Source: Gammaproteobacteria bacterium (GTDB lineage Bacteria > Pseudomonadota > Gammaproteobacteria > HyVt-429). From it: a stretch of 64,000 nucleotides of DNA. The notes beneath the pieces are model-generated. The model was not told the DNA's origin. It ran no database searches and was given only the letters and a program-made list of their open reading frames with translations. The stretch's first letter is position 1; each line of letters opens with the position of its first letter. Positions 15,683 through 59,494 of this stretch are shown piece after piece. Made by a program: the position numbers and the translations under genes. The stretch is from NCBI GenBank assembly GCA_013152415.1, contig JAADGI010000019.1:130000-193999 (forward strand), read 5' to 3'.

Positions 15683-17728
15683 TTAACGACCAAGCTGGGC
15701 CTTGTTGTGCCAATAATTTGAGGTCTTGGCATCCTTGGGCAGGCCATAGAGTCCGTCATGATAGGCTTGTGCCATAAACTCCTGGGCCTTACTGAACCCC
15801 GCCTCGGCTGCCTGCCTGACCAAACTCACCCCACGACGTGCATCACCCACCACACCTCTTCCTTCCACGTAGAGCAGAGCAAGATTATACAGTGCGGTTA
15901 AATGCCCCTGGTCTGCGGCACGCCGATACCATATGGATGCCAAACGATCGTTGCGCTCTACACCCCAACCACTTTCGTAGAGAAAACCCATGTTGTATTG
16001 GGCGCTGGCGAGCCCACCCTCGGCCAAGGGCTGCCACAGGGCCACCGCCTGATCATAGCGTCCCGCATTAAAGGCATTTTGCCCATCGCGAAGTAGTTTT
16101 CGTTGCAGGGCGTTGCCTGATTTGAGCTTTGTTGCTTTGCTCTTGGGTTTACCTTTTTCAACCACTAATTTCTTATCGGGCTGGACAGCCGGTTCTTTTT
16201 TCTTTTTCTTGGGTGTTGCGGATGTGGGTGCTTTGATAGATTGCTCACGTTTCTTGATGGCAAGGTGCACGGTCTTAAAAGACCGAATCCACGGTTTTCT
16301 ATCACGCAAGGACTGTGGCAATCCATCTCGAGCCTGTTTTGCCACCTGCAAAGTCTCAAAAGAACCGTATAAAAGAGAAAACCAGGGGCGTCCTTCGTGA
16401 CGTGACTCGAAATAAGCCAGTGGTGAACCAAGCGACTTGTTGACAACAAAGTCTTTCACCGAGCTTAACCTACGATCGGCAAAAATTTGTATCGTATAGT
16501 GCCTTGGATTACGCTTGAGCAACCAGGCCTCGTCGAGCAACTTCTCTCCTTCTGCAATAACCGACCCCTCATCTTCGTCACCTCTAACAAGCGGTGGTGG
16601 CGAAACGGGCTTCTCGGGCACTCTGGGTACTTGAATAGACGACTGCTTCGGCACTACTTTTTCCACCTTGGCGACGACGGGTTTGGTGGGTTCCTTGGAT
16701 TGGGGTGCAGATGGCGTCACTGGTTTCTTCTTAACACCCACAACAGGCTTAGCCTCAACAGAGCCACGCGCCATCAAGTCTTGCACCTCTGCAAATCGAC
16801 GTATCCACGCCCCCATAACTCTCAATTTTGGCGATAGCCCCTTAAGTGCCCGGTCGGCCTCTGCAAGTGTGGGATAAACCCCCTGAATCAGACTAAACCA
16901 GGGCTTACCCTGGTGCAGAACTTTAAAAAGGGCCACATCCCTTTTTAAATCATGCTCTTTAATGAAGGTCAAAATCGAGGCCTCAGTCCAATTGGCAAAG
17001 AGCTGGATGGTATAGTGGCCTGAATTCTGGACTGCAATCCAATCCCCACGGTGGATAGTGAATTTAGCCTGCTGCCCTGACTTCCCATCCCCGACAAGTT
17101 TGTGTTTCGCAATTACTTGCGGCTTTGCCTGGGTGATTTTTTGGGCCTGGGTGGTTTTTTTGGATGCTGAAGTCTTGCCAGCCAACTTTAAACGTTTTTC
17201 GGTGGACTTTAAGGCCTGAATCGCAGCCTTGTCACCTGTTTCAGCAGCCAGAACAAACCAATGCCGGGCTTGCTCCAGACTCATCTTGACGCCACGGCCA
17301 TAGAAATAAAGTGTCCCAAGATTATATTGGGCCTGGGCAAAGCCCTGCTCGGCGGCCTTCGTCCACCAACTCGCCGCAGTGGCTATATTCTTCTTAACTC
17401 CACGCCCAGCTTCGTACAACACACCTAGATTGAACTGGGCCGGTGGATAACCCTGCCCGGCAGCCTGTTCATATAATTTCGCGGCCTTGGAGTAGTCGCG
17501 CTTTACACTCTGGCCTTCTGCGTATAACACCCCCAGATTAAACTGGGCTGCAGCCTCACCCTTTTCTGCCAAGGGCTGCCATAACTTTTTGGCAGTTTTA
17601 AAATCCCCTTTTTGGTAGGCCATAACAGCATCTGCAAATCCATCGGCGTATAGGGGCGCCGCCAAATACACACCGATCAGCCAGATGATCAGGCCGAAGC
17701 TTCCTGTTTTTTTGATCATATCAAACAC
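15683..17728 (-). CDS. Sel1-repeat and SPOR-domain protein
   Basis: Sel1 repeats lie at both ends (AQFNLGVLYAEGQSVKRDYSKAAKLYEQAA..., AQYNMGFLYESGWGVERN...). Two internal SPOR-like domains are present (HYTIQLFANW...WIRRF and HYTIQIFADR...WIRSF). There is an N-terminal signal/TM segment and Lys/Pro-rich linkers. Confidence 0.75.
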   Translation of the reverse strand: MFDMIKKTGSFGLIIWLIGVYLAAPLYADGFADAVMAYQKGDFKTAKKLWQPLAEKGEAAAQFNLGVLYAEGQSVKRDYSKAAKLYEQAAGQGYPPAQFNLGVLYEAGRGVKKNIATAASWWTKAAEQGFAQAQYNLGTLYFYGRGVKMSLEQARHWFVLAAETGDKAAIQALKSTEKRLKLAGKTSASKKTTQAQKITQAKPQVIAKHKLVGDGKSGQQAKFTIHRGDWIAVQNSGHYTIQLFANWTEASILTFIKEHDLKRDVALFKVLHQGKPWFSLIQGVYPTLAEADRALKGLSPKLRVMGAWIRRFAEVQDLMARGSVEAKPVVGVKKKPVTPSAPQSKEPTKPVVAKVEKVVPKQSSIQVPRVPEKPVSPPPLVRGDEDEGSVIAEGEKLLDEAWLLKRNPRHYTIQIFADRRLSSVKDFVVNKSLGSPLAYFESRHEGRPWFSLLYGSFETLQVAKQARDGLPQSLRDRKPWIRSFKTVHLAIKKREQSIKAPTSATPKKKKKEPAVQPDKKLVVEKGKPKSKATKLKSGNALQRKLLRDGQNAFNAGRYDQAVALWQPLAEGGLASAQYNMGFLYESGWGVERNDRLASIWYRRAADQGHLTALYNLALLYVEGRGVVGDARRGVSLVRQAAEAGFSKAQEFMAQAYHDGLYGLPKDAKTSNYWHNKAQLGR

Positions 17729-18284
17729 TGGGTCACATAATTTTACTGGAAAACAGACTGGTCTGGACTATATGCCAGATCCTCAACGCACTCTATCCTT
17801 CGGTTAGATCAGCTACTCCCTCTGCACCCAAATCTCATACCTGATCTAAGTACACTCACTCCGGTACGAATGATAACATTCATGGCATCTACTTCCATTA
17901 GTGCAATATCACTGTGTCCCCATGACAATCCCTTTTGGGGCTCGTACTCCTTGAGCACATTACAAACATCCAGTATCTGGGCCACGAGAAATGGCCCGGC
18001 CACACAGATTCTTCGGGTGACTACTACCGTCTCAAGGCTTGTGGTGATATTAATGGAACAGCCCTTTGCATACTACAATGAGTTTGGGGCTGTCATTTAA
18101 TCGCTCAGGTGTAGCGCACTTTGGAGGAAACCTTTCATCATGCGCTCAAAAAAGGGACTCGGATCGTAGCCCCCATTTCTTCCAGACCCGTAGAAAAGGC
18201 CAAATAAATACGCAATATGACGGTGCGAGGGGAACAAAGAAACACGACGCAGAACTTCAGCAACAATGGTCGAAGTCATCCGCA

Positions 18285-19721
18285 TTACAACACCTTCGAA
18301 CGGATCACCATGAGCTTTTCGACCTGCATATCACGGTAGGTATAAGGGATGCCCCCAACCCCTAAACCGGATTGACGCAACCCAGCGAAGGGCATCCAGT
18401 CCACTCTAAATGCAGTATGGTCATTGATCATCACTGCGCTGGCGTTAAAATGCTTGCAGGCATACAGGGCCTTGTCCATGTCCCGGGTAAACACTGCGGC
18501 CTGAAAGGCCACCGGCAAGGCATTGGCGCGGCCCAGGGCCTCATCCATATCCACATAATCGTAGACACATATGACCGGTCCAAAGATTTCTTTGTTTGAC
18601 ACCTTGGTGTCCTGGGGGGGATTAAAGAGCACCGTCGGGCTATAGCAATGGCCATGGACTTCGCCCCCGGTCAACAATTTGGCACCGGCAGTCACTGCCT
18701 CGCTGACCCACTGACGCACCCGATTCAGCTCTTTGCTCCGAATCAGGGGTCCGATCTCGGTAACAGGATCTGTGGGGTCACCCACAACCTGGGCCTGGGC
18801 AAGCGTGGCTAAACGCTCGGCCACCTCCCTGGCAATAGACTTGTGGCAGAATACCCGCTGTACCGACACACAGACCTGACCCGCATGATAAAATCCACCC
18901 TTGGCGATAAGCGGCAGGGCGTCGTCCAGATCTGCATCTGCCTCGATAATGACCGGCGCCACACCGCCATGCTCCAGAGCACAGCGGGTCCCTGGGGCCA
19001 ACTTGCTGCGCAACATCCAGCCCACACTGGCACTACCAATAAAACTAAAAAAACCTACCCGTGAGTCGGTAACCAATTGACTCGCCACATCCAGATCCGA
19101 CACTACCAATGCCTGGCACCACTCCTCCGGGAGGCCTGCTTCCCGTAACAAGGCAACAAAGCGGTAACAGGATAGAGGCGTGTCTTCCGCCGGTTTAATA
19201 ATCACCGGACAACCGCTGGCCACTGCCGGGCCCACCTGATGCACAATCAAGTTGAGCGGGTGATTAAAGGCACTGACCGCCACCACCACCCCGATAGGCT
19301 CCTTCCGAGTGAAGGCCAAACGACTCTGCGATGCCAAATTGACCCCCATGGGGATTTCCCGACCGCTATCACCTCGAATACATTCGATACAGTTGTGCAC
19401 CCCATCAATAGCACGGGCAACTTCTACCCTGGAGTCCATCAATGGCTTGCCACCCTCTCGTGCCGCCTCCATAGCCAGATCATCGGCCTGGGCATCCATG
19501 AGTTGCGCAGTTTTCTTCAGAATGGCAATGCGCTCGGTAGCCGTCAACCAACGACCGCGATCCGCAAAAAGTTGCTGTGCGGTATTTAGCGCGGTTTCGA
19601 TAGCAGCGGTGTTGGCCGTATCCAGGGTAGCGATAATGCTGTCGTCATAGGGGGCAGTGACGGTCAGGGTGTCACCACTGGCAGTAGCCCCTGGAATCAT
19701 CAATGGGTGGTGTGTCGTCAT
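18285..19721 (-). CDS. NAD(P)-dependent aldehyde dehydrogenase
   Basis: The ALDH family motifs FNHP, the catalytic region ALEHGGVAP and FYHAGQVCVS are present. The start is probably the internal Met (MTTHHPLMIPG). Confidence 0.85.
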   Translation of the reverse strand: MTTHHPLMIPGATASGDTLTVTAPYDDSIIATLDTANTAAIETALNTAQQLFADRGRWLTATERIAILKKTAQLMDAQADDLAMEAAREGGKPLMDSRVEVARAIDGVHNCIECIRGDSGREIPMGVNLASQSRLAFTRKEPIGVVVAVSAFNHPLNLIVHQVGPAVASGCPVIIKPAEDTPLSCYRFVALLREAGLPEEWCQALVVSDLDVASQLVTDSRVGFFSFIGSASVGWMLRSKLAPGTRCALEHGGVAPVIIEADADLDDALPLIAKGGFYHAGQVCVSVQRVFCHKSIAREVAERLATLAQAQVVGDPTDPVTEIGPLIRSKELNRVRQWVSEAVTAGAKLLTGGEVHGHCYSPTVLFNPPQDTKVSNKEIFGPVICVYDYVDMDEALGRANALPVAFQAAVFTRDMDKALYACKHFNASAVMINDHTAFRVDWMPFAGLRQSGLGVGGIPYTYRDMQVEKLMVIRSKVL

Positions 19722-21402: not shown

Positions 21403-21531
21403 GGTCAAGGCGGTCCTTTTTCTTGTTAGTCGAATCGCTCATTTCAGTCCATTGGGACCAAAATAAAGCTATAGCGTTCCCTGACACGAGTATAGACCGG
21501 TAAATCGGTCCCTATACGCTAAAAAGTACTT

Positions 21532-21667
21532 ACACTAAGGAAAACGGAAGTTGCCCTACATCGCTATCAGCGGGTGTCGGCAGCATGGGCGCTGCCGTCA
21601 AGCGTACAGGGACGTATTTACCGCGTCCCGCTGATAGTGATGTCGGGCAACTAATGAACTCTAGTAC
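21532..21667. repeat. ~136-bp structured MITE/REP-like intergenic element, copy A
   Basis: About 88% identical to 59355..59494. It has long imperfect inverted arms (GTTGCCCTACATCGCTATCAGCGGG / CCCGCTGATAGTGATGTCGGGCAAC) around an inner GGCAGCATGGGCGCTGCC hairpin. The terminal inverted repeats are TACTAAGG / CTAGTA. Confidence 0.7.
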
Positions 21668-21745
21668 CAGGGGAAACGCCCCTTTGCCTCACCTTGGTAT
21701 GGTGGCATCACCAGCGCCAGAGCAGGCCACTTTCCATATCAGCAT

Positions 21746-25777: not shown

Positions 25778-25910
25778 ACTTCGGGCATCCTGCCCTTCGC
25801 CCTCCGGGCCAGCCTTCGGCTGTTCAAATTTGTTCCCGACAAATTTGTCAAACACACTCCAAATATTTCGTCGGGAGTTCAAATCTTTCCAAAACTATAT
25901 CAGTCAATGC

Positions 25911-25936
25911 AAAAAGGACCCATAAAGGGCCCTTTT
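25911..25936. terminator. bidirectional hairpin terminator downstream of the tRNA-Ser/tRNA-Arg pair
   Basis: AAAAGGACCC-ATAAA-GGGCCCTTTT: a 10-bp stem with one mismatch and U-runs on both strands. It lies 9 nt past the tRNA-Arg 3' end. Confidence 0.5.
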
Positions 25937-25944
25937 ACATTGAT

Positions 25945-26021
25945 TGGCGCGCCCGGAGAGATTCGAACTCCCGACCGCCTGGTTCGTAGCCAGGTACTCT
26001 ATCCAGCTGAGCTACGGGCGC
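25945..26021 (-). tRNA. tRNA-Arg (anticodon ACG)
   Basis: The reverse complement GCGCCCGTAGCTCAGCTGGATAGAGTACCTGGCTACGAACCAGGCGGTCGGGAGTTCGAATCTCTCCGGGCGCGCCA folds as a cloverleaf with anticodon loop CTACGAA. It is near-identical in architecture to E. coli argV. Confidence 0.9.
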
Positions 26022-26218: not shown

Positions 26219-26311
26219 TGGCGGAGAGAGAGGGATTCGAACCCTCGATGGAGTTTAACCCCCATACTCCCTTAGCAGGGGAGCGCCTTCAGCCAACTCG
26301 GCCATCTCTCC
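26219..26311 (-). tRNA. tRNA-Ser (anticodon GCU)
   Basis: The reverse complement GGAGAGATGGCCGAGTTGGCTGAAGGCGCTCCCCTGCTAAGGGAG...GGGTTCGAATCCCTCTCTCTCCGCCA is a class II tRNA with a long variable arm. The anticodon is GCT. Confidence 0.9.
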
Positions 26312-35391: not shown

Positions 35392-35489
35392 AGTCTATTT
35401 GCACAACCTGAAGGAAAACAAAAGTGACCCGACATCACTCTCAGCAGATATCGGGTAACCCGTACCCCAGCCGCTGAACACCACCATTA

Positions 35490-54112: not shown

Positions 54113-54646
54113 ATGAATAATATTGCGCTTGAAAACATTGAACAGCCAATAGATACAAGCCAATTTCTCACCTTTATGCTGTCGGGTGAGGAATTGGCTG
54201 TATCCATCATGCAAGTCAAGGAGGTCATTGAGTACGATAGTTTGACCTCTGTACCCATGATGCCCAACTTTATCTCTGGCGCCCTTAATCTCAGAGGCAG
54301 TATTGTACCAGTTGTTAATCTCGCTATTAAATTTGGTATGCCAGTTTCTGAAATAACACACCGTAGCTGTGTTGTCATTATGGAGGTGATGCTAGATGGC
54401 GAGGAATCTGTAATCGGCATATTGGTGGATAAGGTATTGCAGGTCAACTACATCACAGACGAAGACATTCATGCGGCACCTACGCTGGGCTCTCAGATAC
54501 GGACTGACTTTATTCGTGGTATGGGCAAGCTGAAAGAACGATTTGTGACTATTCTGGCCATCAATAGAGTGTTATCAGAAGAAGAGATTGCAATAGCAGG
54601 CAATATTCAGAAAGAAGATGAAACCCTCATGGAAGCCCGCGCTTAG
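54113..54646 (+). CDS. cheW: chemotaxis coupling protein CheW
   Basis: FLTFMLSGEELAVSIMQVKEVIEY...ALNLRGSIVPVVNL matches the CheW fold pattern. The start is taken at the internal Met of track ORF 54035. Confidence 0.85.
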   Translation: MNNIALENIEQPIDTSQFLTFMLSGEELAVSIMQVKEVIEYDSLTSVPMMPNFISGALNLRGSIVPVVNLAIKFGMPVSEITHRSCVVIMEVMLDGEESVIGILVDKVLQVNYITDEDIHAAPTLGSQIRTDFIRGMGKLKERFVTILAINRVLSEEEIAIAGNIQKEDETLMEARA

Positions 54647-58967: not shown

Positions 58968-59342
58968 ATGAGCAGAACAATACTAATTGTTGACGATGAG
59001 CCTTCAGTGCGTAAAATGCTAACCAAGATTCTCAAAGAAGAAGCAGATGTATTTCTAGACGCAAAAAATGGAGTACAGGCAAAACAACTCTGTTACGAAC
59101 AAGATGTTGACTTAATGATTACCGATATAGTCATGCCAGAAAAACATGGGATAGACCTGATTATTGAGATAAAAAAAGAAAAACCAAATTTACCTATTAT
59201 TGCAATATCAGGCGGCGGGGGCATATCTGGCCGGTTTGATTACTTGGAAATTGCCGGGACCCTTGGTGTTGAAAATATATTGCACAAACCGTTTAAGGCA
59301 AGCGAATTAAGAAGTTTTGTCAGATCCGCTTTGAGTGATTAG
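58968..59342 (+). CDS. single-domain response regulator (CheY-like)
   Basis: 124 aa: ILIVDDEPSVRKML...DLMITDIVMPEKHGIDL...LHKPF. Confidence 0.8.
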   Translation: MSRTILIVDDEPSVRKMLTKILKEEADVFLDAKNGVQAKQLCYEQDVDLMITDIVMPEKHGIDLIIEIKKEKPNLPIIAISGGGGISGRFDYLEIAGTLGVENILHKPFKASELRSFVRSALSD

Positions 59343-59354
59343 TTGTTCCGCACC

Positions 59355-59494
59355 TACTAAGGAAAACGAAAGTTACCCGACATCCTTTATCAGCGGGTGT
59401 TGGCAGCATGGACGCTGCCATCAAGCGTACAGGGACGTATTCACCGCGTCCCGCTGATGAAGGATGTTCGGGTAATCAATGAACTCATTAGTAC
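59355..59494. repeat. ~140-bp structured MITE/REP-like element, copy B
   Basis: About 88% identical to 21532..21667. Arm substitutions are compensatory (CTTTA/TGAAG here versus CGCTA/TAGTG in copy A). It begins 13 nt after the last che-operon stop codon. Confidence 0.7.

Follow-up and report, generated by a model that had tools for sequence, protein, structure and literature searches.

Two repeats in the window (the whole stretch of 64,000 nucleotides that was analyzed) are best filed as previously undetected, divergent members of the TwoAYGGAY/Ysr224 family and not as something categorically new. Homology places both repeats, here called copy A and copy B, in this family, and the analysis also establishes the structure, the strand specificity, the loop motif, and the mobility of a sister subfamily. 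The reading to which about half of our confidence goes is that the copies are MITE-like foldback elements that carry a CsrA-type binding RNA module. A mobile RNA module is favored because the copies belong to a family with a covarying fold, a single structural strand, ANGGA loops, mobility, and no cis-linked enzyme; transcription of the element, its binding of CsrA, and a regulatory effect are, we infer, part of this picture. Since its description in 2010, TwoAYGGAY has stayed an orphan motif. If the CsrA link is true, the family would consist of mobile cassettes by which transcripts acquire CsrA-binding sites, which would be a simple way to rewire a global post-transcriptional regulon. The features discussed are the following (R1 is the covariance model described below).

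21534..21666, + strand: copy A, whole element (outer ends, P1, and 52-nt core), about 133 bp, delimited by BLASTN against copy B
21549..21574, + strand: copy A, left arm of P1, 26 nt, partner of 21627-21652
21575..21626, + strand: copy A, 52-nt core, the three-way junction apex, from the ungapped alignment with 43 other copies
21579..21596, + strand: copy A, hairpin P2, GGCAGC / loop AUGGGC / GCUGCC
21602..21624, + strand: copy A, hairpin P3, GCG-UAC / loop AGGGAC / GUA-UUUAC-CGC
21627..21652, + strand: copy A, right arm of P1
26380..26580, - strand: csrA, 66 aa, found with E. coli CsrA as the tblastn query (70% identity, E 1e-25)
35411..35460, + strand: remnant copy between convergent ORFs, with core and inner stem deleted
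59355..59493, + strand: copy B, whole element, about 139 bp, from R1 and the fold
59371..59397, + strand: copy B, left arm of P1, partner of 59450-59476
59398..59449, + strand: copy B, 52-nt core
59402-59419, + strand: copy B, hairpin P2, loop AUGGAC at 59408-59413
59425-59447, + strand: copy B, hairpin P3, loop AGGGAC at 59431-59436
59450..59476, + strand: copy B, right arm of P1

When 21530-21670 is compared with the window by BLASTN, copy A and copy B align with 86.3% identity over 139 nt (E 8e-40), which confirms the two repeats reported in the initial annotation and lowers the identity of 88% given there to 86%. Pairwise alignment with the flanks included confines the similarity to the element; the flanks are unrelated and the pair is therefore not a segmental duplication. 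On the + strand the minimum free energies are -66.8 kcal/mol for copy A and -66.5 kcal/mol for copy B, with a long stem and two apical hairpins in each, and the z-scores of the folds are -6.9 and -7.7 (0/200 shuffles fold as well); the - strands fold slightly less stably. P1 of copy A has 24 Watson-Crick pairs, one G·U pair, and one mismatch, and in P1 of copy B a single U is bulged and two pairs are G·U. The initial annotation had claimed that differences between the arms are compensated, and they are: the outer stem changes from GUUGCCC/GGGCAAC in copy A to GUUACCC/GGGUAAU in copy B (G-C to A-U), the middle stem has a compensated C-G to U-A change and a segment in which CGCUA/UAGUG becomes CCUUUA/UGAAGG with the gain of one pair, and the closing pair of hairpin 1 changes from C-G to U-A. 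The terminal inverted repeats that it described are present, but are just about 6 bp long (TACTAA/TTAGTA) and degenerate in copy A.

Searched with a covariance model, the whole window yields two full copies and no more, copy A (102.8 bits on the + strand and 23.9 on the -) and copy B (97.2 bits on the + strand and 16.2 on the -). A third, internally deleted copy at 35411-35460, absent from the initial annotation, consists of the left end (AAGGAAAACAAAAGTGACCCGACATCAC...) fused to a remnant of the right arm (ATATCGGGTAAC). It matches copy B at 92% over 26 nt (BLASTN, E 1.3e-5), retains a hairpin of -11.5 kcal/mol, and is not picked up by R1 in the window search. A near-perfect hairpin of about 20 bp at 54149-54207 (-31 kcal/mol), which has no TwoAYGGAY core, is matched by the covariance model solely through its long stem.

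A pattern made from hairpin 2 of the RNAfold structure had no match in genomes, and the pairing of that hairpin in the window copies is not conserved family-wide. A second pattern made from hairpin 1 and the junction, GGCAGCATGGNNGCTGCNNTCAAG, matches at least 110 loci; among the matches listed are metagenome-assembled genomes (MAGs) of Ectothiorhodospiraceae (one of which has dozens of copies), Marinobacter, Saccharospirillum, Thioalkalivibrio, Methylococcales, Thiotrichaceae, Arenimonas, Aliidiomarina, Competibacteraceae, and Thiogranum. When the copies are aligned on the match, the length of the core is invariant at 52 nt (TGTYGGCAGCATGGAYGCTGCCGTCAAGCNTACAGGGAYGTATTYACNGCGT). The inverted arms around it have a median length of 28 bp and are near-perfect within a copy and unrelated between loci and taxa. 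The conserved part is the 52-nt apex, not the arms or termini, which the initial annotation had overlooked, as it had the link of the apex to the Rfam motifs TwoAYGGAY and Ysr224 and to CsrA-type binding loops. Searches of plasmids, E. coli genomes, and viral contigs did not find the core, and a metagenome scan with the left end of the window subfamily returned the known relative and chance matches and nothing else. A set of 44 arms had no match in phage genomes when examined as possible spacer-like sequences.

A structure with a 28-bp P1, a P2 of 7 bp capped by a hexaloop, and a P3 in two parts was tested against 44 diverse copies aligned without gaps. Paired cells make up 94.5% of those observed, versus 62.5% in column shuffles and 36-49% with slid partners. 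Changes on both sides of a pair occur in all 28 P1 pairs, in the three inner P3 pairs, and in the closing pair of P2 (matched by 0/500 shuffles), with P2 fixed by the search pattern in this alignment. A covariance model built from the alignment (R1) detects 107 copies in 576 kb, many of them outside the search pattern, and these have different yet paired P2 stems (CUUUGCC/GGCAAAG, GGUAGC/GCUACC, and UGCAAC/GUUGCA). R1 recovers copies that current Rfam thresholds miss. The structured repeat family under selection for pairing that the initial annotation had proposed is borne out by this covariation, and the further copies and the covariance model by which it suggested that the claim be checked both point the same way. 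In copy A the core occupies positions 29-80 of R1, and its P3 is assigned from the covarying pairs 58-76 and 59-61 with 68-70 and from a loop that matches CANGGAYG.

The family is structured on one strand. Among the arm mismatches in 39 independent arm clusters, G·U outnumbers A·C by 57 to 10, and R1 scores are about 100 bits on the + strand versus 16-24 bits on the - strand. The G·U excess and the R1 scores together indicate a single structural strand, which is the + strand of the window. Other interpretations of the core were considered and rejected. A small ORF in the core, MDAAVKPTGTYSRR, was discarded because its variants are non-conservative in the protein while pairing is kept. A likeness to hammerhead or twister ribozymes seen by eye has no Rfam support at E values up to 10. 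An integron attC site does not fit, as judged from the sequence, in that the GTT/AAC boxes are in inverted order and cassette arrays are absent.

A second subfamily in Marinobacter has two CAUGGAUG hairpins (GGCGGC.., GCACAUGGAUGUGC) and scores 70-87 bits with R1. Its copies are found at L030:2725-2834, L075:4447-4556, L089:3121-3230, L035:3097-3206, L056:2042-2151, and L056:2985-3094 (L numbers denote loci from other genomes), and one copy of the subfamily, which lies head-to-head with the first subfamily, is lost from L056.

The window copies match no Rfam model at the gathering threshold or at E values up to 10, and neither reaches the threshold of TwoAYGGAY (RF01731, 43 bits) or Ysr224 (RF02770, 70 bits). 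The Rfam search recommended in the initial annotation was therefore empty for the copies themselves and informative for a relative. A copy from Methylococcaceae (L023) scores 104.5 bits with R1 and 40.3 bits (E 1.8e-5) with TwoAYGGAY in the same orientation, so that R1 bridges the homology between TwoAYGGAY and the window copies. The opposite strand of L023 scores 23.6 bits with Ysr224, and other copies score 23-29 bits. Ysr224 resembles the family in having the same core on the opposite strand (ACGCCGUAAAUACAUCCAUGUAGGCU...GCGCCAUCC..GGCGC) and differs in that its annotated strand is the one that has the A·C mismatches in the present family. A survey of small RNAs ranks Ysr224 with the most frequent annotations once every instance in a genome is counted (PMC9029176), a high count that fits a repeat. 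By sequence comparison, TwoAYGGAY and Ysr224 appear to represent opposite strands of a single widespread repeat family, with the match to Ysr224 a weak one.

According to Weinberg et al. (2010), the TwoAYGGAY motif carries an AYGGAY loop twice and its P1 is "often very large (e.g., 24 base pairs)"; they considered it to be probably an RNA and not cis-regulatory (PMC2864571). Their alignment contains at least five copies from Psychromonas ingrahamii with the GUACAGGGACGUA hairpin of the present family, Psychromonas copies (several) with its ACAGGGACGUA hairpin, and also AGGGAC loops (PMC2864571). TwoAYGGAY and the present family are alike in the long closing P1 (26-28 bp in the window copies, with a family median of 28 bp), in two hairpin loops of the form A-Y/R-G-G-A-Y, in the CAAGC junction, and in being found in several copies per genome in Gammaproteobacteria. 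The present family differs in its fixed 52-nt core, in a second loop that is usually AGGGAY, in its extra outer ends, and in target-site duplications found in one genome. Loop 1 of copy B (AUGGAC) fits AYGGAY, whereas loop 2 (AGGGAC) has R for Y at position 2; loop 1 of copy A (AUGGGC) has no GGA, and the loops of the family as a whole read A-N-G-G-A-Y.

In a census of 91 copies, P2 reads C-A-N-G-G-A-Y-G in 88, mostly as CAUGGAUG, and the P3 loops of about 80 also follow this motif, in the forms CAUGGAUG, CAGGGAUG, or CAGGGACG; GGA is essentially invariant even where the stems diverge. Such C-A-N-G-G-A-Y-G loops we take to be the recognition hairpin of CsrA/RsmE. The SELEX consensus for CsrA is RUACARGGAUGU, and the RsmE-hcnA consensus is A/U-CANGGANG-U/A. 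The hexaloops are closed by C-G and the two GGA motifs lie 23 nt apart, a spacing that suits one CsrA dimer. In copy B both loops satisfy C-A-N-G-G-A-Y-G. In the P2 loop of copy A GGA has become GGG, a degenerate CsrA-type site, and this loop, CAUGGGCG, occurs in 1/91 copies.

TwoAYGGAY belongs to Rfam clan CL00106 together with CsrB, a clan that was confirmed by scanning E. coli csrB. Gardner and Eldai (2015) proposed that TwoAYGGAY binds and sequesters CsrA (PMC4333381), and in the literature consulted CsrA binding to TwoAYGGAY stands as a proposal. A September 2026 preprint has 52 mentions of TwoAYGGAY, 14 of reverse transcriptase, 24 of cDNA, 18 of DRT, and none of CsrA or transposon, and writes of "TwoAYGGAY elements" and "loci" (bioRxiv 10.64898/2026.09.22.753630); it may assign TwoAYGGAY a function other than CsrA binding. 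The family shares with CsrB, RsmY, and RsmZ the ANGGA hairpin loops closed by C-G, and the clan through TwoAYGGAY. It differs in that these sponges are each the product of a single regulated gene with 5-22 sites, whereas the present element is dispersed, multicopy, and mobile and has two per element. The low number of GGA sites relative to CsrB and RsmZ counts against a CsrA module, as do the loss of GGA from loop 1 of copy A and the failure of the window copies to reach an Rfam threshold, and the many GGA hairpins and the promoter and terminator of its own that characterize a Csr/Rsm sponge are not those of an element with two GGA loops; a scan found no sigma-70 promoter or terminator consensus at either window copy.

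The window csrA gene product is a candidate trans-acting partner of the loops, the gene itself lying outside the repeat. After csrA, which is about 5 kb from copy A, come genes for tRNA-Ser (26219-26311, - strand) and tRNA-Arg (25945-26021, - strand). A very stable inverted repeat at 25865-25980 (-53.9 kcal/mol), in which tRNA-Arg is paired through its 3' portion with a partial inverted copy (TCGGGAGTTCAAATCTTTCC ... GGAGAGATTCGAACTCCCGA) around a terminator-like hairpin, may be the relic of an integration site.

Read as RNA, the + strand of the window would form a P1 of about 26-28 bp and arbitrary sequence that carries the conserved 52-nt three-way junction with its two C-G-closed CsrA/RsmE-type hexaloops. 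P1 may serve as a structural insulator that allows the apex to fold correctly at any insertion site. Transcribed copies would bind CsrA, and CsrA could thereby be either recruited to the transcript or titrated. Copy B starts 13 nt past the stop codon of a cheY-like gene (58968-59342, + strand) in the sense orientation; lying in this 3' UTR and presumably transcribed with it, it is the likelier of the two to be active. Copy A lies between two genes on the - strand (cfa and a gene for a TPP enzyme) and is antisense to both, and given this orientation and the GGG for GGA in loop 1 it is probably inert or decaying. The statement that both copies lie 3' of operons accordingly holds for copy B and has to be amended for copy A.

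Mobility is documented in one Ectothiorhodospiraceae MAG, whose subfamily measures about 200 bp and ends in terminal inverted repeats of 20 bp. Of its copies, 12/29 are bordered by direct repeats of 4 bp or more, where 1.8 are expected and 0/5000 shuffles reach 12; these target-site duplications of 4-6 bp (TAAAT, TAATA, TATTT, AAATA, TAAC, and similar) indicate transposition of the subfamily. Its copies vary least in the core and inner arms (diversity 0.10-0.11) and more in the outer ends (0.21-0.25). At copy A and copy B no target-site duplication is evident by sequence; the mobile miniature element of the initial annotation is upheld through the sister subfamily. The closest homologue of cfa (87% amino acid identity) is in HyVt-429, a MAG of Acidiferrobacteraceae from a hydrothermal vent, with Thiogranum next. 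The spacer between cfa and the TPP enzyme gene is about 190 bp shorter in this MAG, and copy A lies within the difference, an indel of either direction. Element copies are present at other sites in the same MAG, and the family therefore displays the dispersed copies and the presence/absence polymorphism between relatives by which a MITE is recognized. About 60 bp beside copy A (21667-21745), with the small hairpins GGGGAAACGCCCC and TGGTGGCATCACCA, are also missing from the HyVt-429 spacer, which makes the indel larger than the element. Just left of copy A, a small hairpin at 21487-21520 (GTATAGACCGGTAAATCGGTCCCTATACGC) is conserved in the relative without copy A and is complementary at 20/23 positions to the hairpin-3 part of the core, which may be chance or a target preference.

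Every HyVt-429 copy (L001:8497-8703, L037:1853-2009, and L111:3430-3600) has a partly palindromic insertion of 49-76 nt inside hairpin 3. In L037 the outer ends, which are asymmetric, are inverted with respect to the core, an arrangement that recombination between the arms would produce. A copy occupies one and the same position, downstream of a thiolase gene, in six species of Marinobacter, with a nearly identical core, arms that contain compensated changes, and a surrounding spacer that cannot be aligned, a pattern that argues for selection at a fixed locus. An "empty site" in the Marinobacter locus L056 was considered as an insertion polymorphism, but a secondary deletion at an AGC microhomology accounts for it better.

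In a rival explanation, the element is a purely selfish DNA transposon remnant, a MITE whose apex is the recognition site for a transposase supplied in trans or for a host factor on one DNA strand and which has no RNA function in the host. The target-site duplications of the sister subfamily, the genomes with multiple copies (8 kb of Saccharospirillum or Marinobacter DNA can contain several), the random orientation relative to genes with more convergent (23) than divergent (11) sites, the decayed remnant in the window, the decayed or interrupted copies in the closest relative, and the indel of about 190 bp that spans copy A all agree with this explanation, which we nevertheless consider rather unlikely. 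The family is like MITEs, REPs, and REPINs (including ERIC and Correia elements) in being small, noncoding, intergenic, multicopy, hairpin forming, and enriched at the 3' ends of genes, but the conservation is inverted: the arms, which would be the inverted repeats bound by a transposase, vary freely as long as they pair, and the internal apex is constant. The orthologous Marinobacter copies, kept with compensated changes, imply selection at a fixed locus, and no transposase is found among 132 flanking proteins. Single-strand transposition of the IS200/IS605 type would be expected to leave a bias in GC skew, whereas orientation has a weak relation or none to local GC skew (21/58, p 0.05; 34/78, p 0.3).

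Simple hairpins at transcript ends are another possible role. As a REP-like element, the repeat would form the ends of transcripts or protect the 3' ends of mRNAs, and very stable hairpins on both strands that are often located just past stop codons and between convergent genes, as copy B is 13 nt past one, are in keeping with this. This explanation is improbable in view of the absence of a U-tract and a terminator consensus at either copy, which leaves the terminator role suggested in the initial annotation without support. A plain barrier hairpin also needs neither an invariant, branched apex of 52 nt with GGA loops nor pairing that is specific to one strand. REPs and REPINs are palindromes of 20-40 nt with a 5' GTAG/CGTC tag and a link to RAYT; no conserved GTAG/CGTC tag was found at the arm ends of the present family, and there is no Y1/RAYT protein among the 132 neighbors.

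The mobile CsrA-binding module has in turn to accommodate the genomic context of the copies. Crude ORF calls around 76 copies place 23 between convergently and 11 between divergently transcribed genes, with 20 tandem copies in the sense and 22 in the antisense orientation. Orientation relative to the flanking genes is random, and avoidance of promoter regions is the one preference. Many copies therefore cannot work through the neighboring mRNA, yet the strand bias is kept; in copies that are antisense to both neighbors, G·U mismatches still outnumber A·C by 12 to 2. Host transcription does not explain the strand bias, and the strand-specific pairing of wrongly oriented copies may be due either to a single-stranded intermediate of propagation (DNA or RNA) or to independent antisense transcription.

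An RNA intermediate would account for strand-specific structure in any insertion context, and the element could on this basis be an ncRNA linked to a reverse transcriptase or a nonautonomous, SINE-like retroelement that propagates through its RNA. A G·U bias independent of the orientation of neighboring genes, many dispersed copies with no adjacent transposase, AT-rich duplicated target sites, and the pairing of TwoAYGGAY with reverse transcriptase and cDNA in the 2026 preprint are compatible with this, although its mentions of reverse transcriptase and cDNA may refer to other systems or to probing methods. We regard the explanation as quite doubtful. The 132 flanking proteins are the products of housekeeping genes in 164 Pfam families, among which reverse transcriptase, transposase, and integrase are not recurrent, and no reverse transcriptase is found among them. 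In about 0.9 Mb around the copies, 31 ORFs match [YF]xDD, and the 10/31 that were tested against Pfam are all ordinary enzymes. There is no poly-A or other 3' tail. That the family represents bacterial SINE-like retroelements in which the ANGGA RNA strand is reinserted by a reverse transcriptase acting in trans is very improbable, though it would explain both the missing transposase signature and the short, AT-rich target duplications. Chance similarity or a larger segmental duplication, the second of which the initial annotation had named as fatal to its reading if no more than these two copies exist, would agree with the presence of just two full copies in the window; it is refuted by the unrelated flanks, the E value between copies A and B, and more than 100 homologous copies in other genomes.

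Some minor observations concern genes near the copies. In the HyVt-429 MAG, locus L001 (6473-9847) has genes for an ABC1 kinase and an epimerase between those for aldehyde dehydrogenase and a Sel1/SPOR protein, and the window at 17728-18285 is without the ABC1-kinase and epimerase genes. IS3-type transposase genes (HTH and rve) lie just upstream of the relative's cfa (L001:393-1512 and L002:128-1219), and the window has none there. In the Ectothiorhodospiraceae MAG, two copies adjoin an ORF (L019:2297-3151) that contains REHRQDNRRDFDD about eight times as a long tandem repeat.
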